A stretch of DNA of 27,194 nt from Flavobacteriales bacterium (GTDB taxonomy: Bacteria > Bacteroidota > Bacteroidia > Flavobacteriales_D > Sanyastnellaceae): positions 1 through 27,194 of the forward strand of contig JBILIX010000001.1 of NCBI GenBank assembly GCA_044368835.1, written 5' to 3'. The notes under the pieces are model-generated. The model saw only the letters and a program-made list of their open reading frames with translations, did no database searches and had not been told where the DNA came from. The position numbers and the translations under genes were made by a program. Shown here piece after piece: positions 2,716 through 27,194 of the stretch (within the stretch, counting starts at the first letter, position 1; each line of letters begins with the position of its first letter).

Positions 2716-2719
2716 GCGA

Positions 2720-2727
2720 CAAATGTA
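2720..2727 (-). promoter_or_regulatory. Bacteroidota housekeeping-sigma -7 box (TACATTTG) for the peroxidase gene
   Basis: Exact match to TAnnTTTG, 4 nt upstream of the ATG at 2715. Confidence 0.55.
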
Positions 2728-2767
2728 ACATCCAAAAAATGCAACAGGAATGGAAATGATTTTTCTC

Positions 2768-2775
2768 TACTTTAG
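2768..2775 (+). promoter_or_regulatory. Possible -7 box (TACTTTAG, one mismatch) for the SRAP gene
   Basis: 7/8 match to TAnnTTTG, 4 nt upstream of the ATG at 2780. Confidence 0.35.
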
Positions 2776-2779
2776 GCGT

Positions 2780-7092: not shown

Positions 7093-7124
7093 TTTCAAGA
7101 AATGTAATCGTGAAATTAAGCAAA

Positions 7125-7206: not shown

Positions 7207-10200
7207 TTACCGCACAATCAAGATAGAGCCGTTGATCTCTTTTTTCACTCCGGTCGACTTCGACACTACGATGGCGATCCAATTATAGGCTCCATTGGGG
7301 GCAAAGTAATCACCTGAACGTACCTCGCCTGTCCAAGCATCGGTCGGATCGTTTGATTCAAAAACCAATTCGCCGAATCGATTGAAGATTTGAAATGTAA
7401 ATCGGTCCGGATCAATATCAGCTCCTTCGAGACGCAGAACATCGTTCAATCCATCGTTGTTGGGGGTGAAACCGGTTGGAATGTAGAATTGAAGCAGGTC
7501 GTCAATGAATACAGTTCCGGTAGGCACTACATCGGTGCATCCGTGTATGTCGGTTACTTGCAAATTCACGAGATAGGTGCCACCATAACCATTGGGGAAT
7601 GTGAACACGGGGTTTGCCGCCGCCGATCCTCCCAATGGTTCACCGCTTAAGGTTGTGAAGGTCCAGAGGTAGTTTGTAATCGGATAACCCGATGTTTCAT
7701 CGGTAAACTGTATTTCTGTATTGAAGATGTCTGTTGGTTGTGGGCCAAAGCTGTAATTGGCCGCTGGTGGAGAATAGCTGTTAAGATAGTTTTCAGCCTC
7801 TACCGAATAGGAGCAGCCCGCAGCATTTGTCAAAATCAACTCAACTCCATAACTGCCTGGATATTCAAAGGATACACTTACATCGTTTTGATTGATAAAC
7901 TGTGAACCATCGCTGAGCACCCAACGCAATTGGGCGAACTCAGACGGGTCATTCAATACAGTTAGTTCAAATGCTCCAGGCCAACATCCTGCTGTAGTAT
8001 CGGATGTAAACGCCGGTGAAATTATGGGTAGAACCTCTATTTGAAAACAGTTGTTCACTTCATAATTACAAGCATCCACCACGGTGAGGCACGCTTCTCC
8101 ATCTGCTTCCGGAAGGTAGGTCAGGTCCTGGCTATTGCCGATGCTAACACCATTGTAGGTCCATTGATATTGGAAGGGGGCCAAACCTTCCGACAGTGTA
8201 TACAAGTCAAGATTAATAGATCCTCCGTTGCATACGGTAGAGTCATCGGAGGTAAAAATCTCTGTGGGCAGAGGCATGTCAATTGTTACGGTTGCGAAGT
8301 TTTGACAATCGGCATTAATCGCAATTACATAATCATAATCGCCGGGCACATCATTCATCGGATCGAACGTATCGTCGGTTTGTTCAACCAGTGGCAGTCC
8401 ACCACCCGGGTTGTAATACCAGATTCCACCCGTTGCAGGATTTCCTCCCAACTCGTCAAAGAGGCTGAGAACCGCAGCTGTTGGGCAAATTTCCACATCG
8501 GAATCAGTACCTGGATCACCCAGAGGGTCCACGGAAACGATTACCTGATCGTTCGATGCACACCCGGGATAACCCAATGGATATCCAGTCAGTGTGAAGG
8601 TTGTAGTTTGATTCAGATCAAGCACAGTTGGATCAGAAACGTTGGCATAGTCCAACGGATTATTGGGTGTCCAGTTCCATACAAACGATGCTGCAGCGGC
8701 GCTTCCGGCGCTAACTGAGTACAAGAATTCTTCAGCTCCCCCATCGGTGCAGTTGCCCACGCCATCCCATTCAGAAATGTAAAACGTTAAGCATCCACTT
8801 GGGTTGGTCGCTGTCCAACTTAAACCGGTTAAATCGCCGTTGTACATGCCAAGTTGTGGTGAAGGCCACGTATCGGGGCCATCGAAAACAAATAGGTTGT
8901 CGTTTACTGCTGCCGATCCTTCCAAAAAGGTTATCGATACAAAGCCATCGCCTGCATTGTCGGGGCAATAGGTTTGCTGATAGAAATCAAATACGGTATA
9001 GCAATAGGAGTATACACCGCACGAAGCACATGCAACCACAGGGTCGTTTTCAAGACCGCCATCCAATGGGATGGTTCCACAGGCAATTATCTGGTCAGGA
9101 CCGGCTGTAACCGTGGGGGCTTCGTTAACGGTTACTTGAATAGTGGTGTCAAATTCACAACCGAAACTATTCACAACATAGTAAGTGAAATCGAATGTAC
9201 CTGTAGTTCCGGGTATAATTTCAATCAAGTCGCCATCATTTGAAATGCTATTAATCCAAGGTATGCCATTATCAGGACCTGTAGTCACCCAGTACGATGA
9301 GTCGGGACCAGCGCCTATGGTTGGGGTGAAGGTGGTAACACCCGGATATAACGATGGGTTAAGCCCGATTCCCCATGAGAAAATATATCCATTGTCGATG
9401 GCCAAATTATCGGATACCGAAAACGTCCACTGACCATTTAGTGGGCAGCCAACCAGCGCGCACATATCATCCTGCGATTCATAAATGCCTGGCGTGAGTG
9501 CGTTTCCTGGCGTTGGCGTTGTAACATTTGTAGTATTCGTTGCGGAGTTTTCTCCCCATGTTCCATTGGTCGCAGTGGGTGTCCATGCATAATCCCATCC
9601 AATGCCGGGATCAGTGCCTGCATCATCCAGCGCTTGGCCAAGGAAAGTTCCGCCGCCGCCGTTAGTCCCCCAAGTTACCAGGTTTACTACCGTACCGTTT
9701 GGACAGGTAATGTAAAGTCCCAAATCACCCATGAAGCTATGTTCCATATTCACAAAGACACTGTCGAGGTCGTCGCACGTTTGGAGCAATGCGCCGGCTT
9801 CGAAAAAGTCAAAATTCAAGGAAGTAGAGTAGGAGAATCCAGCTCCATCAGCGAGGTACGTTTCACCTGCAACTACTTGGGGCGGTAGAGCCGTCCAAGT
9901 AGTTCCACTGGCGCTTCCTCCGATGTTGGTGACGTCGTCAACCAACGAGTTTTCACCGATCGCAACAACACCAAAAACGGTATCACCTAGGCACGTTTGC
10001 AAATCAACCATGCCCGCGTAAGTGGGCGAAGTACTCACTAGAATTTGCAGGGGTTGCACATTCAGGCTTTGGCATCCTATCGCATCATCGCCATAGTTGT
10101 TGTCTTCTACGGTGAGTGTTACGATGTATTCTCCGGGCGCAGCGAAGGCATGGGTCACACTGCTTGGGCCGGCATTGCTTATGATGGTTCCATCATCCAG

Positions 10201-10815
10201 ATTCCAGATATAACGTGAAAGATTGAACCCCGCCTGAGCAGCGGAGCCGTTGTCGCCGAACGTAACGCTTTCACCCAAACAAACATTGACCGTTTGGATG
10301 GCTGGGTCAACAGGCGCTGGACTGAGAATTTCAGACTGTGCAATTGGATTAGCACATGGAGTAGTGCATTGAATAGCCGCTTCAAAACCGGGTGAACCTG
10401 CATTAGGTGCGCCATTAGAAGAAAAAACAAGTGTCAAACAACCGGATGTGTTGTTTACCGTTCCGGTAACTTGAAGCCCCTGAATCGAGTTTCCGGTGTA
10501 ATCACCGAGTGTTGGTGCGGCTGTGCTATTGCCATCGAAAATACTCAGGTAGTCGCTGTTGTTTCCGTTGGGACTTGTCTGCAAAGCAAATGCATTGAAG
10601 GTGAGCTGAACCACATCGCCCGGAGTGTCGGGGCAAAGTACGAGTGTGTAGTCTGTATCCGTGTAGGGGCCGCCGAAACCGTCGTCATAAACGTTGAAAC
10701 CGTCCGACACGATAACGCTGCCATCGGGCATACACACAAAACCGGGGGTACCGCATTGAGCAAACGCAAATGTGCTATAAAGAACTGCTGATAGCAGTAT
10801 GAGTGAAATTTTCAT
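7207..10815 (-). CDS. T9SS type-B sorting-domain protein, paralogue B (same architecture as 3553..7092)
   Basis: Signal peptide ending AFA|Q; CUB-like block SDYLSIFDG...GCLTLVFSSN; PKD YIWNLDDG; MEHSFMGDLGLYITCPNG; C-terminal FYIPTGFTPNNDGLND...IFNRFGELVF. Confidence 0.9.
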   Translation of the reverse strand: MKISLILLSAVLYSTFAFAQCGTPGFVCMPDGSVIVSDGFNVYDDGFGGPYTDTDYTLVLCPDTPGDVVQLTFNAFALQTSPNGNNSDYLSIFDGNSTAAPTLGDYTGNSIQGLQVTGTVNNTSGCLTLVFSSNGAPNAGSPGFEAAIQCTTPCANPIAQSEILSPAPVDPAIQTVNVCLGESVTFGDNGSAAQAGFNLSRYIWNLDDGTIISNAGPSSVTHAFAAPGEYIVTLTVEDNNYGDDAIGCQSLNVQPLQILVSTSPTYAGMVDLQTCLGDTVFGVVAIGENSLVDDVTNIGGSASGTTWTALPPQVVAGETYLADGAGFSYSTSLNFDFFEAGALLQTCDDLDSVFVNMEHSFMGDLGLYITCPNGTVVNLVTWGTNGGGGTFLGQALDDAGTDPGIGWDYAWTPTATNGTWGENSATNTTNVTTPTPGNALTPGIYESQDDMCALVGCPLNGQWTFSVSDNLAIDNGYIFSWGIGLNPSLYPGVTTFTPTIGAGPDSSYWVTTGPDNGIPWINSISNDGDLIEIIPGTTGTFDFTYYVVNSFGCEFDTTIQVTVNEAPTVTAGPDQIIACGTIPLDGGLENDPVVACASCGVYSYCYTVFDFYQQTYCPDNAGDGFVSITFLEGSAAVNDNLFVFDGPDTWPSPQLGMYNGDLTGLSWTATNPSGCLTFYISEWDGVGNCTDGGAEEFLYSVSAGSAAAASFVWNWTPNNPLDYANVSDPTVLDLNQTTTFTLTGYPLGYPGCASNDQVIVSVDPLGDPGTDSDVEICPTAAVLSLFDELGGNPATGGIWYYNPGGGLPLVEQTDDTFDPMNDVPGDYDYVIAINADCQNFATVTIDMPLPTEIFTSDDSTVCNGGSINLDLYTLSEGLAPFQYQWTYNGVSIGNSQDLTYLPEADGEACLTVVDACNYEVNNCFQIEVLPIISPAFTSDTTAGCWPGAFELTVLNDPSEFAQLRWVLSDGSQFINQNDVSVSFEYPGSYGVELILTNAAGCSYSVEAENYLNSYSPPAANYSFGPQPTDIFNTEIQFTDETSGYPITNYLWTFTTLSGEPLGGSAAANPVFTFPNGYGGTYLVNLQVTDIHGCTDVVPTGTVFIDDLLQFYIPTGFTPNNDGLNDVLRLEGADIDPDRFTFQIFNRFGELVFESNDPTDAWTGEVRSGDYFAPNGAYNWIAIVVSKSTGVKKEINGSILIVR

Positions 10816-10845: not shown

Positions 10846-10872
10846 AAGACACCTATTGATGCAAAAAGTTGC
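10846..10872 (-). promoter_or_regulatory. Putative ECF-sigma promoter GCAAC-N16-TGTCTT upstream of 7207..10815
   Basis: Plus strand GTTGC at 10868-10872 and AAGACA at 10846-10851, 16-nt spacer, oriented towards the gene and ending 30 nt before its ATG. Confidence 0.6.
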
Positions 10873-10905: not shown

Positions 10906-12084
10906 CTAATAAAGGACCAAAACATGTCCTTCGAACAAATGACCAATACCGCGTTCAGTATCTCGAGCCAAAATGCGGTAATTGTATTGTCCGCTGCCTA
11001 CAAGGCCTGTAGCGGATGAAAGTCCACCATCCCAGACTGCTAACGTGCTTTCCGACTGAAAAACAACCGTTCCCCAAACATCGAAAATTTCGATAGAAAC
11101 AAAATTGGGATCAATACCCAATCCATTTATTTCCCAAGTGTCATTGATGCCATCGCCATCGGGGGTGAATGCATTGGGCAGATACAACTCAATAGCTTGT
11201 ACAACTTCGATTGATTTTTCAGTGGTCGCAATACATCCGAAGACATTGCTTGCTGTAAGTTTCAAGGTGTAATTTTTCTCGAGATCCGCAGGGAACTCGA
11301 TGGTAGGTTCGAAATCGGAAAGTGGCAGCGCTCCTTCATATTGCCAAGTAAATGAATCGGCTCCATTACTTGTATTTTCAATTTTCAGGGTCGTTTCAGG
11401 TAAATAAAGTCTATCAGAATTAACTTTATAAGATGCAACCGGCGTAGTGTATACGCGAATACCAATATCGAGTGAATCGTTCCACACACAGCCGTAAATG
11501 TCAGTTATGGAAAGACTTGGAATAAAGAGTCCGGGGTCCTCGTATGTATGCCAAGCCGATGCTAGCTGAAGGTCAGAGCGTCCGTTGCCGTAGTTCCATT
11601 TCATTTCGGCGACATACTGAAACGCCAAGAAGTTGGAGGTGAATAGCACATTGACTGGTGAGCAACCTTCCCAAACATCAACCTCAAACTCTGCATTAAT
11701 GGGTTGATGCGGATAAAGTATAAAAGCCTGTGAGGCCGTTTTTCCTGCTGCATCCATAATGACGAGCTGCATCGAAGTGGTATCCGTCAGATTCAATTCA
11801 AGAGTGGGTGCAGAGCCAACGAGTAGGCCGAAGTTTTCCCAGCGGTATTGAAAGGGGGCAATGCCTCCTGTAATGCTATCGGGTGCAATCACAAAGTCTG
11901 ATCCCGGACAGAAATAGATTTCCTCGCTCATATGCAGCACAGGTAACGATTTAAGAGTCGTCACTTGGGCAAAAGATTGAGCAGAAAAAAGCAATGAAAC
12001 AAGAAAGAATACTCCACGAAGAGGGTGGGCGAAAAGTGATGTAATCATGTGTGAAATCCGGAGCATACCGTGCCCTATACGCAA
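10906..12084 (-). CDS. PKD-domain protein with T9SS type-B CTD
   Basis: Signal ending SFA|Q; PKD MKWNYGNG...HTYEDPG; CTD LYLPNAFTPDGDGINDTW...IFDVWGTVVF...WDG...YNY. The start is uncertain (TTG 12084, or ATG 12066 or 12048). Confidence 0.88.
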   Translation of the reverse strand: MRIGHGMLRISHMITSLFAHPLRGVFFLVSLLFSAQSFAQVTTLKSLPVLHMSEEIYFCPGSDFVIAPDSITGGIAPFQYRWENFGLLVGSAPTLELNLTDTTSMQLVIMDAAGKTASQAFILYPHQPINAEFEVDVWEGCSPVNVLFTSNFLAFQYVAEMKWNYGNGRSDLQLASAWHTYEDPGLFIPSLSITDIYGCVWNDSLDIGIRVYTTPVASYKVNSDRLYLPETTLKIENTSNGADSFTWQYEGALPLSDFEPTIEFPADLEKNYTLKLTASNVFGCIATTEKSIEVVQAIELYLPNAFTPDGDGINDTWEINGLGIDPNFVSIEIFDVWGTVVFQSESTLAVWDGGLSSATGLVGSGQYNYRILARDTERGIGHLFEGHVLVLY

Positions 12085-12107: not shown

Positions 12108-15100
12108 TTATCGAATCATTATTACACTTCCTGTAAAGTAGATGTCTTCGGCAGAATTATCTACACGCAGCTTGACACGCCAGTTATAGACTTCGTTCTG
12201 CCCGAAGAATAATCCGTTTTCAATATCCCCGGTCCAGGGTTCATCCGGGTTGTTGGAGTAGAATACGCTATCGCCCCAACGGTTGAAAATGCGCAGCTCA
12301 TATCCTGTCGTATCAAACCCGCGAATAATGGGCTTCCACAAATCGTTGTCGCCGTCGCCATCGGGCGTAAATGCATTCGGTGCAAACACCACATATTCGG
12401 CATCCATATACACATACCTACACGTCGTATCTCGGCAACCGTATTGATTTGCTACATCAAGGCATACATAAAAATTGTCGCTTCGTTCGTTTGGGAAAAT
12501 ATAGCTGGGATTCTCTTCTGTGCTTTCATCCAATCCGTTGAACCACCAATGATAGTAGGCGCTGCCAACTGAATGGTTGGTAAATTCAGCTTCGGGTTCC
12601 AGCGTGGTTAATTCGGTTGGTGATATGGTAAAATCGGCAATCGGTGAGGGGTAAACCTCAGCAATTTCCTCCAAGAACAATGTCGATACGCAATTGTATT
12701 CTGAAATGGCAGTGGCCTCAATATCATAAACACCCGGAACGACCAAATCAAGTTCAAGAGTGTCAGCAATGAATGTTCCTATTCCAGCAACATTCCATAC
12801 AATTTGATCTATGTTTTGGCTCTCGACGGAGGGTATAATTTCAAGAGCAATCGGCTTGCATCCGCGAACTGGATCAGATTGGACAATCAATACAGGAAGC
12901 GGGTTTACATTGATTTGGCTAAAGGCGTTTGAAACGCAACCGAAGTCAGAGGTGGCCTGCACACCAATATAAACCGATGAAGCGGGTTGAAGCAAAGGAG
13001 ACAGCGATGTCGGATCTTCGAAGAGGTTAGACGGAGTCCAGATGCAAGTTGTGTTCACCACATTTGCCAGTGGTAGCGTTTCACCGAAACACAGGTCATA
13101 GGAAGAGTTCAAGTTAATCAAGGGATTCGGCTCAACAATCACGGACACATTATCGGTAAAGGTGCAAACCCCATCGTTTGCGACAACCGTGTAAACGGTA
13201 GTCGTTTGTTGATTAACCTCTCCCGGAATGTTCACCGAAGGTGAAGGATCTGTCGCATTGTCGATGCCTGAAGTTGGCGTCCAGCTGTAGGTAGCTCCGG
13301 GCGCCGGATTGCCACCCAACAGTTGATTGGATGCGCCCGCGCACACATGTATGTCTTGCCCGGCACTGTAGTTAATGCCCATTTGTACATTGAGATCAAC
13401 CAGTGCCTCATCAGCGGGACAAGGTCCGTTGGCTTGTATCCGATATACATAGGTTCCTGATGCATCTTGCCCCGGATCAAAAGTGGAGGAATTGAAAGGT
13501 GAGTTATTGAAGTACCAAGCGCCTGCTCCGGATTGTGATTCGGGAAGAAAATCGCTCAACAATTCAGGGCCGTCTGTGTAACAGAAAATTGCTTCAGCGT
13601 CATCGCCTGCATCGTTCGGTGTATAGGTGATGAGGTCAATTTGCAAGCGCTCTCCACCGCAGTCTATGGGCTGAATCACTTCGTAGACATAGCTTTCGGT
13701 GCCGATAAAATCGATTGCTACAAAATTGGAAATTACCTCATTGCTTGTATTCAGCCAAGTCCCCATTCCAACGGCAGCAGGGGGCAATGCTGTATTCAGA
13801 TTGAACAAGGTGGTGCTCCTGCATACATCGAAGGGGGTTGTGGCATCCTCAATAAGCGGTTGCAGCACTTGTATGTTCAGTTGGCCTTCTTGATCGGGGC
13901 ATGAATTGCCGGAAGGGTTGATGACATTCAATTGAACGCTCGCTTCCAATGCCGGGGCGAAAAGGTTGCTTACCAACGCACCGGTAGCACTCTCGAAATA
14001 GACATTCGATAGGTTACTGAAGTAGTCTGTAAGATTCACTTCTTCTCCGAGGCTGCATAAATAAATAGTCTGACTCAATGGTTCAGCAACCGCAGGCTGC
14101 ACAAAAACAGAGAAGCTTGCTTGATCATCGGCGCAGACATTTGCATTTACCTGGTAGATGTAATTGAACGGGCCTGATGAGGTAGGAGTGAAGATGTTGC
14201 TAACCACATTACCATTGGTCGACCACGTGCCTCCGCTGGTAGCATTGCTGCTGAGCATACTGTTTAAGTTGAATGCTGCATCGGTCTGACAAATCGTAGC
14301 GCTTCCATTACTGCCAGCATTTGCAGGAGCCTCCACACTTATGCTAAGCGTGGAGCTAGCGGGATCGCAGCCAACATTAGGATAGTAATATTCATAGTTA
14401 CCTGCAGGTTCAGCACCGGGATTGAATGAGCCATCCACAATTTCACCAGCCTGGTTGGTCCACGTTCCTCCTGGAATGGGGTTCCCGTCGAGGGCGTTGA
14501 GCATGTTGAGGTTATTGGCTGTGGAGCACAGATCAACATCTGCGCTTAGTCCCGAAGGGTTATCCTGCGTGTAAGTTATGGTGAGAGTTGAAATTTGGGC
14601 GATGCACGGTTGTGCAGAGCTTATCGTATAGGTGTATACTCCTTCCTGCAGGGTAGAGGGATTAAACACATCGGATCCTGCAGGCGTTATCAATCCTGAT
14701 GGACCAGTCCAGTTTCCTCCATCGTCGGGTGTGCCTTGCAATTGGTTCAATAAATTAAACGGGCTGCTTCCTTCACAGACCATAATCGAGGCAGAAGTAC
14801 CTGCCAAACGTTGAGTCTGTTCATCTACGAACATACTGCGAAATACGGGCTGGCAGCCGGCTAGGTTATCGATTACATAGGTGAAAAGTGCGTCATCCAT
14901 GGTCGCCGGATCGAATATTCCTCCAGGAACAATATTCAGCGAAGCATCGAACCATTGGCCAATGGTATCGGGTGAACCCGCCATAAAGTCAACCATCTGA
15001 AACGGCTCGTAGGTTTCACAAATGACATAGGTAGTTGTCAGTCCCACGTCATTCGTTTGAATATAAATACCTGAAGTAACGTCGCAGCCTCCCGAACTGG

Positions 15101-15650
15101 TGGTATAGGTATACCAGCCGTTTTCAAATATCAGCTCGACTTCGTTTGGGTTTGACGGATTGGTTTGCTGCCAAACGGCAATGGAAGAAAGTGATGCGTT
15201 GGGGATTATCAAGCCATTCGGGGCGTACCAAATTCCGCCAGGAGCAAACGACGAAGTTTCCGGAGTCAAATCGTAGGTGTTTACAATGCTGGGATACTGC
15301 TCAAGGCACATATTGATTGAATATGCTGTTCCGAGCGAATTGGCTCCGGCGTCTATATTGAAGTAATGGTCTTCAATTGTTCCGTTCGCATACTCTACAA
15401 CGATGTGATAGACGGAAGGGCATAGGTTGTTTAGAGAGGTAGGCCCTGTAAGAGAAGAAGATGTAGCAACCGGAATATTGGAAACATCAAATAGCTGGTA
15501 GGAGTAGCTCTGCAACCCGGTGGGCTGAAAGGTTATGCTGCCAGTGCATTGGCAAGCATCTGCATCGGAAGGGGTAACAATGAATTGTGCTGAGGCCAGG
15601 TGGCTCAGTACGCACAAAACAACAGGTATTAGCCTTTCAACGAATTTCAC
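12108..15650 (-). CDS. Large repetitive T9SS type-B CTD protein (about eight Cys-bracketed ~80-aa repeats plus PKD domains)
   Basis: GTG start; signal ending ASA|Q; repeats such as AGxxxxxxxC...L...L.G.P..GG.W...F.P....G.Y.Y; PKD YHWWFNG; CTD FAPNAFTPDGDGDNDLW...IFNRWGDSVF. Confidence 0.9.
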   Translation of the reverse strand: MKFVERLIPVVLCVLSHLASAQFIVTPSDADACQCTGSITFQPTGLQSYSYQLFDVSNIPVATSSSLTGPTSLNNLCPSVYHIVVEYANGTIEDHYFNIDAGANSLGTAYSINMCLEQYPSIVNTYDLTPETSSFAPGGIWYAPNGLIIPNASLSSIAVWQQTNPSNPNEVELIFENGWYTYTTSSGGCDVTSGIYIQTNDVGLTTTYVICETYEPFQMVDFMAGSPDTIGQWFDASLNIVPGGIFDPATMDDALFTYVIDNLAGCQPVFRSMFVDEQTQRLAGTSASIMVCEGSSPFNLLNQLQGTPDDGGNWTGPSGLITPAGSDVFNPSTLQEGVYTYTISSAQPCIAQISTLTITYTQDNPSGLSADVDLCSTANNLNMLNALDGNPIPGGTWTNQAGEIVDGSFNPGAEPAGNYEYYYPNVGCDPASSTLSISVEAPANAGSNGSATICQTDAAFNLNSMLSSNATSGGTWSTNGNVVSNIFTPTSSGPFNYIYQVNANVCADDQASFSVFVQPAVAEPLSQTIYLCSLGEEVNLTDYFSNLSNVYFESATGALVSNLFAPALEASVQLNVINPSGNSCPDQEGQLNIQVLQPLIEDATTPFDVCRSTTLFNLNTALPPAAVGMGTWLNTSNEVISNFVAIDFIGTESYVYEVIQPIDCGGERLQIDLITYTPNDAGDDAEAIFCYTDGPELLSDFLPESQSGAGAWYFNNSPFNSSTFDPGQDASGTYVYRIQANGPCPADEALVDLNVQMGINYSAGQDIHVCAGASNQLLGGNPAPGATYSWTPTSGIDNATDPSPSVNIPGEVNQQTTTVYTVVANDGVCTFTDNVSVIVEPNPLINLNSSYDLCFGETLPLANVVNTTCIWTPSNLFEDPTSLSPLLQPASSVYIGVQATSDFGCVSNAFSQINVNPLPVLIVQSDPVRGCKPIALEIIPSVESQNIDQIVWNVAGIGTFIADTLELDLVVPGVYDIEATAISEYNCVSTLFLEEIAEVYPSPIADFTISPTELTTLEPEAEFTNHSVGSAYYHWWFNGLDESTEENPSYIFPNERSDNFYVCLDVANQYGCRDTTCRYVYMDAEYVVFAPNAFTPDGDGDNDLWKPIIRGFDTTGYELRIFNRWGDSVFYSNNPDEPWTGDIENGLFFGQNEVYNWRVKLRVDNSAEDIYFTGSVIMIR
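13380..15341 (-). repeat. Protein-level tandem repeats (about 8 degenerate ~80-aa units, two Cys each) inside 12108..15650
   Basis: Units begin near SINMC, YVIC, IMVC, VDLC, ATIC, IYLC, FDVC and AIFC, and most contain GGxW and a closing Y.Y....C. Boundaries are approximate; no obvious nucleotide-level identity. Confidence 0.75.
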
Positions 15651-15760: not shown

Positions 15761-15789
15761 AAAAAAAACCGCAACAATTGTTGCGGTTT
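15761..15789 (-). terminator. Intrinsic terminator after the sigma/anti-sigma operon
   Basis: Perfect 24-bp palindrome AAACCGCAACAATTGTTGCGGTTT (15766-15789) with an A8 run (U8 on the minus strand) at 15761-15768, about 30 nt past the stop at 15820. Confidence 0.85.
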
Positions 15790-15819: not shown

Positions 15820-17079
15820 TTAAGGAAAAACGTTGAATGTGCCGAAGAAATATTTTTGTTCTTGGCTATGGTCGTTCGAAATAATCACTTTGTAGGTGTA
15901 GGTGCTTCCAGATGCAGCTATTGCACCGTTTGGTAATTTCCCATCCCACCCTTTAATGCGGCTCGAGGTCTCGAAAATTTTGCTGCCTGCTTGATCATAG
16001 ATTGAAAGGATGAAATCCACTTTACTCTTTTTCAATCCTTGAGGCATGAACGAGCCAGAGGTAGTAGACCACTGCGCTGGAGCACCGAGCGCAAAATCAG
16101 AGTTCACACTAATATGCTTCACTGCGCCATCAGAGCATCCTGCTTCATTTTTAGCGTTGAGCGCAATCATTTGTCGACCCGAGTTTTGCAATACAAAGGT
16201 GGCACCTTCGGTAATGACTTTCGATTCCAATCCATTACTCCATTCGTATGAGTTTCCGCCTTCGGTGAGGTTTACAATTCTCACTTCCGGGGTGTTTGGG
16301 TTGGTATTGATAAATTCCCATCCGAAGTCTGCATCAGGCGCATCCTCAATGGTAATCATATCGTTCACAACTGTAGTGTTAATCTGGCCGTTGTCGCTCG
16401 TAATGGAAAGCGAAACATCGTAGTGACCTGCTTTTGAAAACTTGTGTTTTGGGTTGATGTCGTCGCTGAAGTGACCATCGCCAAAGTTCCACAGGTAGCT
16501 TCCTGTTTTTGGGCCATTTGTAGTTTGGAAATCAACCTCTTCTCCGCGACAAGCTTTGCGAACGTTGCATCCGAATTCGATAATGTTATCGGGCTTCTGG
16601 CCGTTGGAAATAGTATTCGACTGAACCGGCTGAACGGCTATCTCATCCGATTGGATTATTGCACCGTTGACTCCATCGTTAAAGGAGAGATAGCTTGCAC
16701 CTTCTGATGTTGGGCTGATCACTTGAGAAGCTTTTCCATTCACCATTAAGCTTGGGGCACCGACAGAGATCGCAGTAGTTGGTTGAATAGCAGAGTGACT
16801 TAATCCTCTGGTGGTATTAGTGACATGAATGGCAAACCTCTCCGATGTGTTTGCTTTCTGGGCAAAGGTAGAAGTGTGCTGATGATGATACAGTGCGACA
16901 GCCCCCCCCGAAAGAGCAAGTATGGTTGAAATTAAAGAAACAATCCAAACCGAATTGCCGATTTTAGCCATGCCCATTTGGCGCTGCAAAGCATTCCATG
17001 ATGTATGCTCGTACGGCATTGCATGCTCTTCCATCTTCTCTCGCAGGCTTCGCTCAAATGGCGTAAAGTTCTTTCTCAT
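15820..17079 (-). CDS. Putative membrane-anchored anti-sigma factor with PKD domains and a degenerate T9SS type-B-like C-terminal domain
   Basis: ATGA overlap with the ECF sigma stop. N-terminal FERSLREKMEEHAMPYEHTSWNAL segment; hydrophobic helix at aa 44-64; S/T/P-rich linker; PKD YLWNFGDG...PKHKFSKAGHYDVSL; C-terminus SIYDQAGSKIFE...GWDGK...YTYKVII...GTFNVF. The anti-sigma role is inferred. Confidence 0.65.
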   Translation of the reverse strand: MRKNFTPFERSLREKMEEHAMPYEHTSWNALQRQMGMAKIGNSVWIVSLISTILALSGGAVALYHHQHTSTFAQKANTSERFAIHVTNTTRGLSHSAIQPTTAISVGAPSLMVNGKASQVISPTSEGASYLSFNDGVNGAIIQSDEIAVQPVQSNTISNGQKPDNIIEFGCNVRKACRGEEVDFQTTNGPKTGSYLWNFGDGHFSDDINPKHKFSKAGHYDVSLSITSDNGQINTTVVNDMITIEDAPDADFGWEFINTNPNTPEVRIVNLTEGGNSYEWSNGLESKVITEGATFVLQNSGRQMIALNAKNEAGCSDGAVKHISVNSDFALGAPAQWSTTSGSFMPQGLKKSKVDFILSIYDQAGSKIFETSSRIKGWDGKLPNGAIAASGSTYTYKVIISNDHSQEQKYFFGTFNVFP

Positions 17080-17657
17080 TTAATTGTATGCAAATTCTTT
17101 GTAAGCAATTTCTTCATGTTTTTCTTGGCTTTAGCGTAGTTACTCTTGGAAGTGCCCACACTAATTCCCAACGCTTCAGCAATGTCCTGATGCGTGTAGT
17201 CTTCATATACATAGAGATTAAAAACCGTACGATAAGCTGGTGTCAATTGCTGCATGGCATCAATGATTTGCTCCGGCGTAATGTCATAAATCTCCTCGTT
17301 CTCAGCTGATTCGTCCGATTCTTCATCCGTTCCGCCGCTCCAATTTTCGATATCGTTTTGCTCTCCGAGCAAAACCAAGTCGTGTTTGAGTCGTCGATAA
17401 CGATCAATCGAAAGATTCACCATTATTCTTCTAATCCAGCCCTCGAAAGTACCCACACCGGTGTACTTCTCAAGGTTGTTGAACACCTTGAGAAATCCTT
17501 CCTGCAGCACGTCCATTGCTTGGTCAGAGTCCCTCGTGTATCGCATGCAAACGGATTTCATTTTTCCATAAAACATTTTATGGATCGCCTGCTGCGACCG
17601 TCTGTCTCCTTTGAGACAGCCATCGATCAATGCCTGCAAATGCTTGGTTTCTGCCAC
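17076..17657 (-). CDS. RNA polymerase ECF (sigma-70 group 4) sigma factor
   Basis: Region 2 CMRY...DVLQEGFLKVF...FEGWIRRIMVN and region 4 LTPAYRTVFNLYVYEDYTHQDIAEALGISVGTSKSNYAKAK; 193 aa; GTG start. Confidence 0.95.
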   Translation of the reverse strand: MAETKHLQALIDGCLKGDRRSQQAIHKMFYGKMKSVCMRYTRDSDQAMDVLQEGFLKVFNNLEKYTGVGTFEGWIRRIMVNLSIDRYRRLKHDLVLLGEQNDIENWSGGTDEESDESAENEEIYDITPEQIIDAMQQLTPAYRTVFNLYVYEDYTHQDIAEALGISVGTSKSNYAKAKKNMKKLLTKNLHTIK

Positions 17658-17670
17658 AAGGGTTATGGGT

Positions 17671-17697
17671 TAGACGAGATTTTGATAAAAGGGTTGC
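17671..17697 (-). promoter_or_regulatory. Putative autoregulatory ECF promoter GCAAC-N16-CGTCTA
   Basis: Plus strand GTTGC at 17693-17697 and TAGACG at 17671-17676, 16-nt spacer, ending 13 nt before the sigma GTG. It fits the general AAC(-35)/CGT(-10) ECF pattern. Confidence 0.7.
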
Positions 17698-17771
17698 CCG
17701 CTTCTAGATGCTTGGTCCTATTTCAATTGGATAAATGTAGAGTATTTACATCTAAACTTTACATTCGGATG

Positions 17772-18986: not shown

Positions 18987-19014
18987 GCAACTTCTTCCGA
19001 TAATTAATTGTCTT
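18987..19014 (+). promoter_or_regulatory. Putative ECF promoter GCAAC-N17-TGTCTT upstream of the T9SS type-A gene
   Basis: GCAAC at 18987-18991 and TGTCTT at 19009-19014, in the gap between mnmA and 19098. Confidence 0.55.
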
Positions 19015-19097: not shown

Positions 19098-21407
19098 ATG
19101 AGATTTATTTACTCCTGCTTGTTTTCTGCCGCGCTCTTGATGACGTTGGCAGCTAGTGCACAAGTTTTCCCGGGGTCTACTTGCGATTCAGCTATTGAAC
19201 TGCAATGTGGTCTCAGCTACGCCGGCTCCACAGCCGGTATTGTAAATGACTCAGAGACATCAGGTGCTTCTCAGTGCTCTGGTGTTGGAACCGCCGGTCA
19301 GCTTTGGTATTCCTACACAGCTGCTGAGTTTGGTGCTCTCATAGTTTCGACTTGTGGAAGCTCGATAGACACTCGTATCCACGTATATAGCGGAACCTGC
19401 GGTAATGGCAGCCTTTCTTGCTTAGCTCAGAACGATGACTATTGCAATTTCCAAAGTCAAGTTACTTTCGAAACGCTTCAGGGTGAAACTTACTTGATTC
19501 GCGTAGGCGGTTTCGGAGGAGTTTCAGGTTCGTTCATTTTGAACTTGTCTTGCGGTTCAGCTGAGGCTGGCTGCACAAATCCGTATGCAAGCAACTACAA
19601 TCCATTTGCCTTCTCAGACGATGGCTCATGCATCTACAGCGGCTGCACCGATCCATTAGCAGCCAATTACAATTCAATGGCCACAATAGACGACGGATCT
19701 TGCTACAATTGGGTCTATGGCTGCACCAATCCGGCAGCATTGAACTACAACCAGGCGGCAAACGCTGAAGACGGTTCATGTATCATTGAAGGTTGTACAG
19801 ATGCATCTGCTACTAATTACGACGCTGCTGCTACAATTGACAATGGCTCTTGCACCTATTGCAACGGAGCGGGAAGCATTATGGCAAGTCTCTATATATG
19901 CACATTCTCGAATGGTAACCAGGTGGAATTACAAATTGTAGATGATCAAGGTAACGAGGTTTATTATGCTACAGGTTTGAATAATGGAGCCATCATTTAT
20001 GCAAGCATTTGTTTGCAACCCGGTGTATGTTACACTGCGAATATGATTAATAATACCGGCCCATTTGGTTGGTACAACGGTTACTTCTGGGTGAATGCTT
20101 TTGGTACTCAAATTATCAATGCGCATCCTTCTGCAGATGCTCAGTTTGCTTCCGTTCAATTCAGCATCGATGGTACGTGCGGTCCAATCTTCGGATGTAC
20201 AGACCCAACAGCAGTGAACTACAACCCAGAAGCCAACATGGAAAATGGCACTTGCGTTTACCCTATTGCAGGTTGCACAGATTCAACTGCGGTAAACTTT
20301 GATTCACTCGCGTCAGTAGACAACGGTACCTGCTTTTACATGAACGATTGCTTGGGAAGTGTAACAGAGTTCATTCTAACCCCTGGAATGTTTGCTAATG
20401 AGGCGTCTTATGTGATTTATGATGAATTAGGTAATACCATCGCTGCCGGTTCCGGAGCAACTACACAATATGCATGTTTGTTAGATGGTTGCTACACCGT
20501 GGCCATGTACGATTCGTTTGGTGATGGCTGGGATGGTGGCGGCTACCTCGATGTAGTAATAAATAGCGAGACTACCAACTCCTTTGCTCTAACCACCGGC
20601 TTTGAGGGTGCTGACTATTTCGGAATAAACGCAGAAGGTTGTGTGCCTGTTATTGCTGGCTGCACTGACCCTACAGCATTGAACTATAACGCGCTGGCCA
20701 ACGAAGACGATGGTTCATGCCAATACCCATTGAACTGCACAGATAACCTGGTTACCATTCAAATTGTAACCTCAAACTGGGGTTCTGAAGTTGGTTGGAG
20801 CCTCGTAGATGCAGCAGGTGTTGAAGTGGCATCAGGCTCGGGCTACTCAAGCTGGGGATGGTATACAGAGTACGCTTGCGTGGCCGATGGTTGCTATCAG
20901 TTGATTCTCACAGACAGCTGGGGCGATGGTTGGAATGGAGCTTATTATATGATTTCAACGGGCGGAGCTTATTACGAAGGATCAATGTACTATGGCTCAA
21001 ACGCGATCGATATGATTGCAGTGAATTCAGACTGCGGAGTACTTCCGGGTTGCACCGATGTTGAGGCTATCAACTACGATCCGCAGGCATCTTTCGATGA
21101 CGGTTCATGCATGTACAATTCGGGTAGTGGTCTTGGCATCACAAATGGTTTGGAAATGGAGTTCTCCATCTATCCGAACCCAACCAACGGAGGTATTATC
21201 GTTAATGCAACATCACTCGATCCATTGAAAGTAGTTACCGTAAATATCTACGGTGCTGAAGGTCGCTTGGTTCGTTCGATAACTCAAGGTGCAGGTACTG
21301 CAACTGTTCAAATTCAGGAGGACTTGACTGATTTGTCTGCAGGATATTATTTCGTAGAAATGGTGAATGGCTCTGCTCGCGCAGTGAAGCCGCTTGTTAA
21401 GCAATAA
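19098..21407 (+). CDS. T9SS type-A sorting-domain protein with GCTD-type Cys repeats
   Basis: Signal ending ASA|Q; N-terminal beta-sandwich-like module (LWYSYTA...STCGSSIDTRIHVYSG...NDD...YLIRVGG); eight GCTxxxAxNYxxxAxxDDGSC repeats; CTD FSIYPNPTNG...VNIYGAEGRLV...LSAGYYFVEM. Confidence 0.9.
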   Translation: MRFIYSCLFSAALLMTLAASAQVFPGSTCDSAIELQCGLSYAGSTAGIVNDSETSGASQCSGVGTAGQLWYSYTAAEFGALIVSTCGSSIDTRIHVYSGTCGNGSLSCLAQNDDYCNFQSQVTFETLQGETYLIRVGGFGGVSGSFILNLSCGSAEAGCTNPYASNYNPFAFSDDGSCIYSGCTDPLAANYNSMATIDDGSCYNWVYGCTNPAALNYNQAANAEDGSCIIEGCTDASATNYDAAATIDNGSCTYCNGAGSIMASLYICTFSNGNQVELQIVDDQGNEVYYATGLNNGAIIYASICLQPGVCYTANMINNTGPFGWYNGYFWVNAFGTQIINAHPSADAQFASVQFSIDGTCGPIFGCTDPTAVNYNPEANMENGTCVYPIAGCTDSTAVNFDSLASVDNGTCFYMNDCLGSVTEFILTPGMFANEASYVIYDELGNTIAAGSGATTQYACLLDGCYTVAMYDSFGDGWDGGGYLDVVINSETTNSFALTTGFEGADYFGINAEGCVPVIAGCTDPTALNYNALANEDDGSCQYPLNCTDNLVTIQIVTSNWGSEVGWSLVDAAGVEVASGSGYSSWGWYTEYACVADGCYQLILTDSWGDGWNGAYYMISTGGAYYEGSMYYGSNAIDMIAVNSDCGVLPGCTDVEAINYDPQASFDDGSCMYNSGSGLGITNGLEMEFSIYPNPTNGGIIVNATSLDPLKVVTVNIYGAEGRLVRSITQGAGTATVQIQEDLTDLSAGYYFVEMVNGSARAVKPLVKQ
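19569..21116 (+). repeat. Eight ~23-aa GCT(D/N)xxAxN(Y/F)xxxAxx(D/E)(D/N)G(S/T)C repeats in blocks of 4, 2, 1 and 1
   Basis: Blocks at 19569-19859, 20193-20339, 20658-20726 and 21048-21116, read from the translation and located in the DNA. Confidence 0.85.
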
Positions 21408-23225: not shown

Positions 23226-23322
23226 ATTTCCTTTCATCAACAATCAATAGCCAATAATTCTCTGTGTGCCTTCTTCTATTGGAGGTTTTCAACTGCTAGT
23301 TTCGTTGATCAGTAAAAGCTCT

Positions 23323-23844
23323 ATGAAAAAAATCGATGTAGCGTATTATACACGTCGCGCCAATGCTAAAAAGAAAACGCTTGCCGCTGACCTTAAGAAA
23401 ATTATCAAGAAAAACCCAAAAGGGTTGCTGGCCGATGTGAAGAGCGCTACGGAGTCAACATGGAAGGATGTGAGTTGTGTGGCATGCGGCCATTGTTGCA
23501 TGGAAATGACACCAACCTGGAAGAAGTCAGAAATAAAGCGTGTTGCAGCGCATTTCGGGATGACCTCGGCTCAGTATTACGAAAAGTATTTATATACCGA
23601 GGAGAAGACGGGAGATATCATGAACGATAGCACTCCCTGCCAGCATTTCGACAAGAAGAAGGGGCTTTGTACGATTTACGAAATTCGCCCTTCCGACTGT
23701 GCAGAATTTCCACATTTTCACCGAAAAGATTTTAAGGATCAGGTCGAAGAAGTTTTTATTCCCAACATGGCGCGTTGTCCGGCCACTTTGGTGATGGTAG
23801 AGAAGCTAAACGAGATTATGCGCGAGAAGGGCGTAATAAAGTAA
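23323..23844 (+). CDS. YkgJ-family cysteine-cluster (CxxCxxCC) protein
   Basis: CVACGHCC...CQHF...CTIYEIRPSDCAEFP. Start reassigned to MKKIDV at 23323; Lys-rich N-terminus. Confidence 0.88.
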   Translation: MKKIDVAYYTRRANAKKKTLAADLKKIIKKNPKGLLADVKSATESTWKDVSCVACGHCCMEMTPTWKKSEIKRVAAHFGMTSAQYYEKYLYTEEKTGDIMNDSTPCQHFDKKKGLCTIYEIRPSDCAEFPHFHRKDFKDQVEEVFIPNMARCPATLVMVEKLNEIMREKGVIK

Positions 23845-23851
23845 CAACGAC

Positions 23852-25171
23852 ATGAAGTCACTTGCACATCCGCGACGCGTTCCCTTTATGGTATATGCTG
23901 ACGCAGACGGAAACATATTTGAAGATGAGCGTTACGAAGCAGTTGGGCGAAGTGGATATGACGTCTATCCGCTCACTCCTGAAGACTTCATAGAGTTACC
24001 AACCGGTAGCGACTTATTTACACTTCCCGGCCGACGACCCTATGGTCTGAATCTGGAAACGGGAGAGTTCGATATTTGCGAGGAAGTACAGGCTGTGGCC
24101 GCATTGAATGCACCCGCATACACGCAGTTATATATGGCCGCATTTGGCACTGAAGAAGAGGGCGCACCAACATTGCCTTTGTATTGTTATACGGTGGTGG
24201 GCTGGCTGGACGGGAAGTTCTATACGACTGCGGTTCGAATCGATGCGGATGAACGCCAAGATCTGGAAAACTTTGATCAGGAATTGATCATTGAAGAGAC
24301 TAAAAAGCGACTGCAGCAACATCCGGAGAATAGACTCGTTCAGCACCTTGGCAACAATTGCAGCATTCGCTATTGTTGCCCTGCTGCCCGCAATTTTTTT
24401 ATGGGGCGTTGGGAATGTCCAATTCCGGTTTCGCCTGCATGCAACAGCAATTGCCTCGGTTGTATTTCGTTTCAACCGGAGGAGCATGAATTGACCTCTC
24501 CTCAGGACCGACTCACATTCATTCCGACTGTTGATGAAATCGTTGAATTCACGGTGCCGCATTTAGAAAGCGCTGAAAGGCCCATTGTGAGTTTCGGTCA
24601 GGGCTGCGAGGGTGAGCCTCTGCTCGTATGGCAACTAATGCGCGATGCAATCATTGCTATTCGCAAGAAAACATCGCGGGGAATCATCAACTTGAATACG
24701 AATGGAAGCAAGCCAAAGGCAGTGGAGGAGTTGATGAAGGCCGGTCTGAGTTCAATTCGAGTGAGCACCAACTCAGCTCGAAAATCAGTTTACGAGTCCT
24801 ACTATTTACCCAATAACTATGCATTCGAGGACATAAGAGAGAGTGCGCGCATTGCTCGCCAATACGGTGGCTGGGCAAGTATCAACTATTTCACTTTCCC
24901 CGGCATGACCGACCAGGAGGAGGAGTATGAGGCACTCCGCGATTGGATTCGTTACAGCGATTTGTCCATGATTCAATGGCGCAATTTCAACATAGATCCC
25001 GATTGGTATTTGGGTAAGCTAGGCATTACGGAACTGAAGCCTGGAATGGGAGTTCGTCAGATGATGGTCAAGATTAGGCAAGAGTTTCCTCACTTGGCCT
25101 ATGGATATTTCAATCCACCCAACGAAGTGCAGACGAAATACAATGCGATTCGCATAGAGCTTGGTAGGTAA
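23852..25171 (+). CDS. Radical SAM protein of unknown function
   Basis: CxxxCxxC motif (CNSNCLGC, aa 197-204, nt 24440-24463), SFGQGCEGEP in place of the GGE motif, and NLNTNG and IRVSTNS barrel strands. Confidence 0.88.
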   Translation: MKSLAHPRRVPFMVYADADGNIFEDERYEAVGRSGYDVYPLTPEDFIELPTGSDLFTLPGRRPYGLNLETGEFDICEEVQAVAALNAPAYTQLYMAAFGTEEEGAPTLPLYCYTVVGWLDGKFYTTAVRIDADERQDLENFDQELIIEETKKRLQQHPENRLVQHLGNNCSIRYCCPAARNFFMGRWECPIPVSPACNSNCLGCISFQPEEHELTSPQDRLTFIPTVDEIVEFTVPHLESAERPIVSFGQGCEGEPLLVWQLMRDAIIAIRKKTSRGIINLNTNGSKPKAVEELMKAGLSSIRVSTNSARKSVYESYYLPNNYAFEDIRESARIARQYGGWASINYFTFPGMTDQEEEYEALRDWIRYSDLSMIQWRNFNIDPDWYLGKLGITELKPGMGVRQMMVKIRQEFPHLAYGYFNPPNEVQTKYNAIRIELGR

Positions 25172-26978: not shown

Positions 26979-27006
26979 GCAACCCGCAAGTTACCTTAAT
27001 CGTCTT
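26979..27006 (+). promoter_or_regulatory. Putative ECF promoter GCAAC-N17-CGTCTT
   Basis: GCAAC at 26979-26983 and CGTCTT at 27001-27006, ending 6 nt before the GTG at 27013. Confidence 0.65.
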
Positions 27007-27012
27007 CTTTCT

Positions 27013-27194
27013 GTGAAATTTTGGTTTAAATATGCCACGTTGGTTCTTTTGTTTGTCTTATCAAGGCAAGTTGGTGTTGCTCAGTTGAGCGGCACAGGTT
27101 GCATTGGGCAAACCTCCTACACCGATGGTCAGCCGGACGATCCCATTTATTATTATCCGGCCGGTCAGTTGGGTGAATTAACTGTGGTGCCAGA
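27013..27194 (+). CDS. N-terminus of a secreted protein (3'-truncated by window edge; absent from the ORF track)
   Basis: My translation from GTG 27013 is MKFWFKYATLVLLFVLSRQVGVA|QLSGTGCIGQTSYTDGQPDDPIYYYPAGQLGELTVVP. The frame is open to the end and has a Sec signal followed by Gln. Confidence 0.75.
   Translation, partial: MKFWFKYATLVLLFVLSRQVGVAQLSGTGCIGQTSYTDGQPDDPIYYYPAGQLGELTVVP

Follow-up and report, generated by a model that had tools for sequence, protein, structure and literature searches.

An ECF sigma factor gene of a Flavobacteriales bacterium is coupled to a predicted anti-sigma factor ending in a type-B-CTD-like domain, a candidate trans-envelope sensor

Several described systems resemble parts of the locus reported here. 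In the dual-membrane anti-sigma factor Dma (PMC10927553), a short N-terminal sigma-binding region is followed by one transmembrane (TM) helix, a long disordered tether that crosses the periplasm and an eight-stranded outer-membrane barrel; its gene lies right after that of a Bacteroidota ECF sigma factor of the ECF21 group. Type-B cargo of the T9SS works with PorP/SprF shuttles, proteins that are bound by type-B CTDs; examples are SprB/SprF, Fjoh_3952/3951 and PG1035/PorP (PMC9143113, PMC12618676). In FecI/FecR/FecA signalling, and in trios of ECF sigma, anti-sigma and SusC-like protein, an inner-membrane anti-sigma factor reaches an outer-membrane protein and controls its cognate ECF sigma factor, by way of a FecR domain and a TonB-dependent transducer. 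In the PorA-PorXY-SigP pathway of Porphyromonas gingivalis (PMC7712824), a CTD-bearing surface protein, PorA, informs an ECF sigma factor over T9SS-related genes; PorA acts via a two-component system, and SigP is without an anti-sigma factor of the kind described below. The FlgM/sigma-28 pair is alike in concept, in that a secretion machine could decide the fate of the anti-sigma factor, but FlgM is soluble, is exported whole and has no homology to the protein studied here. How Bacteroidota adjust the production of their large T9SS surface proteins to what can be exported is, to our knowledge, poorly understood. Type-B shuttles were scarce and needed in stoichiometric amounts in one study, which also reports ipTM values above 0.8 for models of cognate cargo/shuttle complexes (PMC12618676). 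A sigma/anti-sigma layout ending in a type-B CTD was not found described in the literature searched.

The window analysed here is a stretch of 27,194 nt from a Flavobacteriales bacterium (GCA_044368835.1, contig JBILIX010000001.1, positions 1 to 27,194). The following features define the sigma gene and its partner, P0001.

17665-17701, minus strand: predicted ECF-type autoregulatory promoter GGCAACC-N16-CGTCT (PWM 21.6 bits), about 15 nt 5' of the sigma start codon
17076-17657, minus strand: ECF sigma factor gene, 193 aa, GTG start (Pfam and TIGR02937)
15820-17079, minus strand: P0001, an anti-sigma-like ORF of 419 aa directly after the sigma gene
about 15761-15789, minus strand: intrinsic terminator 3' of the sigma/anti-sigma pair (fold -19.2 kcal/mol, z -5.9)

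The sigma factor consists of regions 2 and 4 only (Pfam Sigma70_r2 at residues 29-91 and Sigma70_r4_2 at 129-181) and scored 96.3 bits with TIGR02937, for which the cut-off is 42.9. None of the named NCBIfam sigma models scored above its cut-off for this product, and therefore its subgroup is left without a name. The protein shares 52% identity with the sigma partner of a PorP/SprF-barrel anti-sigma factor and 43% with that of an OMP_b-brl_2 anti-sigma factor; the latter value is the sole hint of membership in the ECF21 group. As noticed in the preliminary description, the sigma stop and the P0001 start overlap in an ATGA at 17076-17079; across about 30 loci the two genes either overlap or are separated by a gap of at most 25 nt. 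That description had also placed a common terminator behind the pair, and folding backs it. The hairpin, ACCGCAAC-AATT-GTTGCGGT followed by a T8 run, sits between the pair and the first downstream cargo gene, and none of 200 shuffles folded as well. A simple terminator scanner made no call at this hairpin, probably because the palindrome offers the scanner no loop. In almost every related locus, the promoter motif, which is of the AAC...CGT type, precedes the sigma gene at an equal distance; it was also found before the sigma gene of locus L115. In the explanation that we consider best as a whole (probability about 0.45, see below), the two genes would form an autoregulated ECF sigma/anti-sigma operon.

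P0001 was divided into six parts.

16951-17079, minus strand: cytoplasmic anti-sigma domain, aa 1-43, two helices (complex model and conservation)
16876-16950, minus strand: single TM helix, aa 44-68 (AF2 helix 45-68)
16591-16875, minus strand: disordered periplasmic tether rich in Ser, Thr, Asn and Pro, aa 69-163 (low pLDDT)
16342-16590, minus strand: PKD domain, aa 164-246 (Pfam PKD_4, E 1e-13; pLDDT > 90)
16102-16341, minus strand: second Ig/PKD-like domain, aa 247-326 (AF2 beta-sandwich and alignment to cargo 1)
15823-16101, minus strand: type-B-CTD-like C-terminal domain, aa 327-419 (CHU_C, hhalign, AF2 and AFDB)

The short conserved N-terminal segment seen earlier was confirmed in 27 aligned homologues of the closer family, in which M1, F8, E9 and W28 are invariant, and AF2 placed helices at residues 7-17 and 25-36. 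In the preliminary description, P0001 had been taken for a single-pass anti-sigma factor, and a model of its N-terminus with the sigma factor had been suggested. This predicted complex scored 0.78, a value that may be raised by likeness to solved sigma/anti-sigma pairs, versus 0.01 for the best control; this mark is attained by 3 of 110 mismatched pairs, compared with 55 of 80 among solved complexes. Residues 5-35 of P0001 lie between sigma regions 2 and 4 in the modelled interface, which supports binding of aa 1-43 to both regions. The model backs the earlier assignment, and P0001 is very probably an anti-sigma factor. It has no HxxxCxxC zinc-binding motif; aa 1-43 contain no Cys and are therefore not a ZAS-type domain. 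None of the anti-sigma models in Pfam or NCBIfam matched the protein, and Pfam found no FecR domain (PF04773) in it.

The one hydrophobic helix reported before was recovered by AF2 as a single TM helix (45-68). Seven K/R residues lie ahead of it and one in the following 15 aa, an asymmetry that favours an N-in orientation. In the juxtamembrane stretch of the closer family, Y64 is nearly invariant and A73 invariant. A cleaved signal peptide was considered for this segment and ruled out by the conserved, positively charged 43-aa stretch and by the sigma-binding model. Because a conserved cytoplasmic domain with seven K/R precedes it, the helix reads as an anchor. Type-B cargo differs here, since it has a cleaved signal peptide, whereas P0001 has an inner-membrane anchor and a cytoplasmic domain.

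Downstream of the pair, four genes encode proteins with type-B CTDs.

12108-15650, minus strand: cargo 1, T9SS type-B CTD protein of 1180 aa (CHU_C 48 bits)
10906-12084, minus strand: cargo 2, type-B CTD protein of 392 aa (CHU_C 56 bits; TIGR04131 47.5 bits)
7207-10815, minus strand: cargo 3, PKD/P-domain/type-B CTD protein of 1202 aa (Pfam and NCBIfam)
3553-7098, minus strand: cargo 4, 1181 aa, a paralogue of cargo 3 with 44% identity (Pfam and locus comparison)

Full-length orthologues of cargo 1 come after the anti-sigma gene in related genomes, and most loci have an orthologue of cargo 3 on the downstream side of the pair. All 13 same-family genomes fetched, and about 30 species-level loci, show the gene order sigma, anti-sigma, cargo 1, cargo 3/4. 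Cryomorpha ignava (locus L032) is a cultivable carrier of the cassette. A match was obtained for 73 of the 74 genomes sampled from the GTDB family to which the window belongs. When 301 genomes of the order were searched, 134 of the best 150 matches fell in frames of 405-500 aa, from at least nine families, and the order sigma, anti-sigma, cargo is conserved in at least nine families of Flavobacteriales. The synteny survey proposed in the preliminary description thus revealed a deeply conserved arrangement; the pair is strictly linked to CTD-B cargo genes, an association of ancient origin. No PorP/SprF gene was found within 10 kb at any locus of the family, and about 20 ordinary CTD-B loci from the same fetch had one within that distance. 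The genome encodes SprA and 11 PorP/SprF proteins. In having no shuttle gene adjacent, P0001 is like the 'orphan' cargo of F. johnsoniae. The window also contains no gene for a TonB-dependent receptor.

The long S/T/P linker of the preliminary description corresponds to a tether of about 95 aa with AF2 pLDDT below 50 over residues 70-163 and a mean column identity of 0.27. Behind it, AF2 predicted three beta-sandwich domains with pLDDT above 90; for the C-terminal one, a value of 88 was also obtained. Two of these had been described as PKD-like. For the first this holds by Pfam, whose match spans residues 174-238; Pfam gave no match to the second (about 250-325), for which the assignment comes from the model and from collinear alignment with the penultimate domain of cargo 1. 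The ectodomain aligns collinearly with the final 230-250 aa of the cargo proteins: the last 230 aa of cargo 1 align with P0001 residues 196-414 (E 1e-15), and cargo 2 aligns with residues 168-399 (E 3e-9). This extent matches the length cited as needed for type-B secretion (PMC12618676). P0001 shares with type-B cargo the CTD fold, homology along the entire C-terminal domain and the Ig/PKD domains ahead of the CTD.

The HMM search suggested earlier matched both CHU_C and PKD domains to P0001, the CTD matches being below the curated cut-offs. Pfam CHU_C (PF13585) covered residues 354-410 with profile positions 27-82 of 86, scoring 24 bits (cut-off 27), and TIGR04131 gave 17.6 bits (cut-off 35). 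Several comparisons support a type-B CTD fold of the C-terminus, as had been expected. In hhalign, it aligned with the cargo CTDs over its full length (99.6%, E 1e-23, 97 columns), and AFDB cluster matches named 'gliding motility-associated C-terminal domain' had TM-scores of 0.64-0.77. The fold ends at the final residue, 419. A PDB fold search with the CTD model returned weak generic beta-sandwich matches only; at the time of PMC12618676, no type-B CTD structure had been solved.

What the domain is missing is the first loop (P-N-x-F-T-P-N-G-D-G-x-N-D; FTPNGDGxND). The clade of the window protein has it deleted, and 18 of the 141 examined family members possess it. Each of the four neighbouring cargo proteins matches CHU_C from profile position 3, and they carry loops of the PNAFTPDGDGxND type, in agreement with the earlier reading of a CTD-B pattern without the loop of its neighbours. 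A paralogue in the same genome (on C254) keeps the loop and matches CHU_C across the full profile with 56.6 bits. Distant relatives keep it as well and, like the paralogue, score above the curated cut-off, their full type-B CTD forming the very end of the protein. Since these relatives and the paralogue retain the loop, its loss is derived, and the loop-less state requires just a single change on the family tree. Further differences from type-B cargo are that RWG is replaced and that the protein ends in P, not R. The label 'degenerate' given to this domain at first is misleading: its mean column identity of 0.62 is on par with the other folded parts, against 0.27 for the linker, and it has a family-specific FMPxxLK motif. 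Judged by this conservation, the loop-less CTD is under purifying selection. We take the deleted loop to be motif A of the five SprB CTD motifs. Each of the five is necessary for secretion of the SprB CTD (PMC12618676). The loop-less domain probably acts as a non-exported pseudo-substrate. The clade is a natural experiment on which parts of a CTD serve binding and which serve export.

We also considered that the anti-sigma factor might copy the tag of its own cargo closely enough to use a common shuttle. This found no support, as the neighbours' CTDs do not stand out among the 45 type-B CTDs of the genome; the best match to P0001 was an unrelated cargo protein (48% over 48 aa), and the CTD of cargo 1 reached 28% over 57 aa.

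The N-terminal motif occurs in other architectures too. A profile of it found 2169 relatives at E <= 1e-3, and motif-headed proteins adjoin ECF sigma genes in unrelated cassettes. Such proteins end in an OMP_b-brl_2 barrel (36 of 92), in CHU_C (25 of 92) or in a PorP/SprF barrel (5 of 92). In one cassette, a sigma gene is followed by a gene for a motif-TM-linker-PorP/SprF barrel protein and then by one for a small TIGR04131 protein. That the motif is common to anti-sigma factors ending in OMP_b-brl_2 and PorP/SprF barrels argues for an outer-membrane or T9SS contact. By the described layout, P0001 resembles Dma in its short putative sigma-binding region, single TM helix, long tether and gene position. 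In contrast to the barrel of Dma, it ends in a soluble PKD-Ig-CTD module, Pfam finding no OMP_b-brl domain, and any link to the outer membrane would therefore need a partner in trans. Its sensor module is also of another kind than those of the FecR systems, and compared with the PorA pathway the CTD belongs to the anti-sigma factor itself.

The explanation that we favour, at a probability of roughly 0.45 as a whole, is a trans-envelope sensor. The 43-aa N-terminus of P0001 would hold the sigma factor at the inner membrane, and the disordered tether would span the periplasm, bearing a PKD-Ig-CTD module that would copy, in collinear fashion, the 'extended type-B secretion signal' at the C-terminus of the downstream cargo. 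Such a sensor would be a split version of the dual-membrane layout of Dma. Its CTD-like end would bind a type-B T9SS component in the outer membrane, be it the translocon or a shuttle of the PorP/SprF type; that the CTD contacts the T9SS or a shuttle at all is a tentative proposal. A change in this contact (a free shuttle, transport activity or the state of the envelope) would lead to proteolysis of the anti-sigma factor and release of the sigma factor, which would then read GGCAACC-N16-CGTCT promoters before its own operon, cargo 3-type genes and other secreted or T9SS genes. Contact with the outer membrane or T9SS, proteolytic release and control of cargo genes are steps that we infer. In a more specific version, which we hold to be doubtful, the tethered domain would be caught by a PorP/SprF shuttle or by SprA, engagement or a pull by the T9SS motor would trigger proteolysis, and transcription of cargo genes would track free export capacity. 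Because the outer end of the inhibitor copies the export tag of the neighbouring surface proteins, the cell may tie the production of these proteins to the T9SS machinery.

It is rather unlikely, but deserves weight, that P0001 is an ordinary single-pass anti-sigma factor whose ectodomain senses a polysaccharide, a surface ligand, periplasmic cargo or envelope stress, and that the CTD is a recycled beta-sandwich. PKD and Ig domains are frequent ligand binders, and a CTD below the curated cut-offs and without its first loop, matched in the PDB by generic beta-sandwiches only, would suit this, as would the lack of PorP/SprF genes within 10 kb of the family loci and of any special likeness to the neighbours' CTDs. 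A recycled domain is harder to reconcile with the relatives and paralogue that end exactly in a complete type-B CTD scoring above threshold, with sister architectures ending in outer-membrane barrels (PorP/SprF among them), with the strict, ancient linkage to CTD-B cargo genes, or with the predicted purifying selection on a CTD that has its own FMPxxLK signature.

The ectodomain could also be a true T9SS substrate, in the manner of FlgM: it would be cut near the membrane, the PKD-Ig-CTD part exported and the inhibitor lost, so that secretion turns the sigma factor on. Many family members with a full type-B CTD, an ectodomain as long as the extended type-B signal and the juxtamembrane conservation at Y64 and A73 speak for this. 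However, the loop deleted in the window clade is, on our assumption, one of the five motifs needed for SprB CTD secretion (PMC12618676), and a cleavage site would be putative only. Export of the loop-less form is unlikely, and we regard the FlgM-like reading as improbable. That P0001 is no anti-sigma factor, but just one more member of the sigma regulon, a surface protein either secreted or anchored in the membrane, agrees with the absence of both a matching Pfam/NCBIfam anti-sigma model and a zinc-binding HxxxCxxC motif. The ATGA overlap with the sigma gene, the conserved 43 aa ahead of the helix, the complex score of 0.78 versus 0.01 and the presence of the motif in neighbours of ECF sigma genes from unrelated cassettes make this highly improbable.

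If the trans-envelope sensor is true, a widespread anti-sigma family bearing a type-B tag or a shuttle barrel offers a concrete, testable link between the T9SS and transcription. Should the pseudo-substrate reading hold, this would be the first case of an ECF switch coupled to secretion by the T9SS, and would represent a 'split' Dma design, with PorP/SprF-barrel-fused and tag-fused versions as two solutions to one contact, and would extend the dual-membrane anti-sigma concept (PMC10927553). It would also account for a conserved, unannotated gene that many Flavobacteriales of the sea and of fresh water carry under the label 'PKD domain-containing protein'.

Further copies of the promoter motif were detected in the window.

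10847-10872, minus strand: predicted ECF promoter copy GCAACT-N16-TGTCT, 31 nt before cargo 3 (motif scan)
18987-19013, plus strand: weaker predicted copy before the type-A CTD gene 19098-21407, whose product has a Por_Secre_tail
26979-27005, plus strand: strong predicted copy (17.8 bits) 5' of a secreted-protein gene that runs off the contig

In total, the window holds 4 copies versus 0.21 expected, a number reached in 0 of 100 shuffles, and the genome holds only 26. A variant upstream of cargo 1, GAAAC-N17-CGTAT, was not significant (a match in 26 of 100 shuffles), and among the cargo genes only cargo 3 has a good copy. In five other genomes (L101, L103, L106, L108 and L023), cargo 3/4-type genes also have the motif at their start or ahead of it. 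The sigma factor more probably than otherwise controls cargo genes. A clear regulon did not emerge from the genome-wide scan (PWM and strict pattern), in which the gene set was mixed and many genes were cut by contig ends. Its top sites lie before genes for a DUF5684 membrane protein, a TonB_C protein and several secreted proteins, one of which has an apparent type-A CTD.

The DNA carries an ECF sigma gene coupled to the gene for P0001, a putative anti-sigma, and four cargo genes encoding proteins with type-B T9SS sorting domains (CTDs). All four cargo genes lie downstream of the pair on the same strand. The features are as follows, the cargo assignments coming from Pfam/NCBIfam.

17076-17657, - strand, ECF sigma gene, 193 aa (Pfam/NCBIfam: regions 2 and 4; TIGR02937 96 bits)
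15820-17079, - strand, P0001 gene, 419 aa, ATGA overlap with the sigma gene
~15761-15789, - strand, strong hairpin and T-run 3' of the pair (-19.2 kcal/mol, z -5.9)
12108-15650, - strand, cargo 1, type-B sorting domain
10906-12084, - strand, cargo 2, type-B sorting domain
7207-10815, - strand, cargo 3, type-B sorting domain
3553-7098, - strand, cargo 4, type-B sorting domain
L110:679-2245 (contig C254, same genome), - strand, paralogous sigma/anti-sigma-like pair

The ATGA coupling, hairpin and domain layout listed in the preliminary description were all confirmed. No named NCBIfam subfamily matched the sigma at cut-off in the Pfam and NCBIfam search.

The architecture of P0001 was modelled with AF2 from an alignment of 27 homologues. 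The model has short helices at 7-17 and 25-36, a TM helix at 45-68, disorder at 70-163 and three confident beta-sandwich domains (~165-246, 250-325 and 335-419). By Pfam, the first sandwich is a PKD domain and the last a partial CHU_C match (profile positions 27-82; 24 bits, cut-off 27). The TM helix has seven K/R residues before it and one after, consistent with an N-in anchor. Family conservation is 0.57 for the N-terminus, 0.73 for PKD, 0.61 for Ig2 and 0.62 for the CTD, and low (0.27) for the linker. Modelling the sigma together with P0001 aa 1-70 gave 0.78 in three runs, against 0.01 for the best of three controls; the 0.78 may be raised by resemblance to solved sigma/anti-sigma pairs. 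At the mark used, 55 of the 80 solved complexes pass, as do 3 of the 110 mismatched pairs. The modelled interface comprises aa 5-35 of P0001, including the conserved F8, E9 and W28, and sigma residues 19-59 and 122-182, i.e. regions 2 and 4. The model supports, but does not prove, binding of the sigma by the P0001 N-terminus.

The C-terminal domain was compared with type-B CTDs. At TM 0.64-0.77, its model (pLDDT 88) matched AlphaFold clusters labelled 'T9SS type B sorting domain' or 'gliding motility-associated C-terminal domain'; a PDB fold search with the same model returned nothing specific. Profile-profile alignment of 36 family CTDs with 16 cargo CTDs spanned 97 columns (99.6%, E 1e-23). 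Moreover, the entire folded ectodomain is collinear with the final 230-250 aa of neighbouring cargo (E 1e-15, 3e-9), the C-terminal length cited as required for type-B secretion (PMC12618676). The first conserved CTD loop is intact as FSPNGDGxxD in more distant family members and absent from the window clade and from Cryomorpha; on a tree of 54 proteins with weak branch support, a single change suffices for the two states. Judged from sequence and modelled fold, the domain is a genuine type-B CTD homologue in which the loop deletion is derived. A family-specific FMPxxL(K) motif just C-terminal to the loop position is common to all members. The deleted loop is presumably motif A of the five type-B CTD motifs, and if so, export of the loop-less P0001 is unlikely. 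These five conserved motifs lie in the last 100 aa, and each is required for secretion of the SprB CTD (PMC12618676).

Searching with a profile built on the first 75 aa of P0001 retrieved 2169 cluster representatives at E<=1e-3. The ~30-aa motif FE..L...L...E.PY....W..L occurs once in P0001, and many relatives carry 2-8 tandem copies in their cytoplasmic part (e.g. P0123, P0124, P0125, P0127). Among 92 representatives of 280-900 aa, the C-terminal end was OMP_b-brl_2 in 36, CHU_C in 25 and a PorP/SprF barrel in 5. OMP_b-brl_2 is the domain reported for the dual-membrane anti-sigma Dma1 (PMC10927553). One cassette (L115:4424-7540, MAG GCA_023251075.1) encodes an ECF sigma, then an anti-sigma-like protein with five motif copies, TM helix, linker and PorP/SprF barrel, then a 214-aa TIGR04131 protein, a mirror image of the window layout. 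Its sigma is 52% identical to the window sigma and is preceded by the same promoter motif. In a second cassette, an ECF sigma (43% identical) precedes an OMP_b-brl_2-ended protein. As type-B CTDs bind PorP/SprF proteins (PMC9143113, PMC12618676), a domain-swapping argument suggests that proteins ending in the tag and those ending in a barrel are two routes to one envelope-spanning link.

P0001 has 187 full-length homologues (identity 35-82%), none with an annotation beyond 'PKD repeat protein'. In ~30 species-level loci the sigma is followed by a P0001 homologue and 1-3 large CTD-B proteins, the latter orthologous over their full length to cargo 1 and cargo 3/4, and the order was identical in 13 of 13 further same-family genomes fetched. 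Among 301 genomes sampled from the order, P0001 matches were found in 73 of the 74 from the window's own family; 134 of the best 150 matches lie in 405-500-aa frames, with at least nine families represented. None of the P0001-family loci has a PorP/SprF gene within 10 kb; ~20 ordinary CTD-B loci from the same fetch have one adjoining. The window's genome encodes SprA, 11 PorP/SprF proteins and ~45 type-B CTDs. The sigma of its second pair, on C254, is 36% identical to the window sigma, and the 344-aa partner combines the shared N-terminal motif, linker and PKD with a complete CHU_C (56.6 bits). This pair lies directly 3' of a gene for a 1786-aa-frame CHU_C protein, and its promoter has GGCAAC at -35 in common but ATCAT at -10.

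The element GGCAACC-N16-CGTCT lies ~15 nt 5' of the sigma start codon in the window and in nearly every related locus. GCAAC-N16/17-YGTCT matched four times in the window against 0.21 expected (0 of 100 shuffles reached four) and just 26 times in the whole 2.39-Mb genome. The three remaining window copies lie 5' of cargo 3, of a type-A CTD gene at 19098 and of a secreted-protein gene at the contig end. In other genomes (L101, L103, L106, L108, L023) the motif likewise precedes cargo 3/4-type genes or coincides with their called start. No significant copy lies 5' of cargo 1, directly after the terminator, and the genome-wide set comprises mixed genes. It is thus likely, though not established, that the window sigma controls at least some of the cargo genes. 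The type-A gene (19098-21407, + strand) encodes a 769-aa protein with Por_Secre_tail as sole Pfam match and has a weaker promoter copy at 18987-19013. At 26979-27194 (+ strand), a strong copy (17.8 bits) is followed by a gene with a signal-peptide-like start, cut by the contig end.

The preliminary description had suggested that P0001 is a cargo-linked anti-sigma that may sense secretion through a type-B CTD-like domain. This interpretation is supported in part: the anti-sigma identity, as predicted by the complex model, the CTD homology and the cargo linkage stand; secretion sensing is still inferred. This reading is strengthened by the sister architectures ending in outer-membrane barrels and tempered by the missing loop, the lack of a linked shuttle gene and a CTD with no special similarity to the neighbouring cargo tags. 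A literature search found no paper in which an anti-sigma carries a T9SS sorting domain.

Among the other genes, cargo 3 and cargo 4 are paralogues (44% identical) with CUB-like, PKD and proprotein-convertase P-domain matches and long stretches without any Pfam family. At 1612-3556, the cargo array is bordered at its end by genes for a MauG/MbnH-like di-haem peroxidase (- strand) and an SRAP (SOS-response-associated peptidase) protein (+ strand), both probably unrelated to the sigma/P0001 cassette. At 23266-25171 (+ strand), a radical SAM gene begins 7 nt downstream of a CxxCxxCC zinc/iron-chelating-domain gene, suggesting a small coupled pair.
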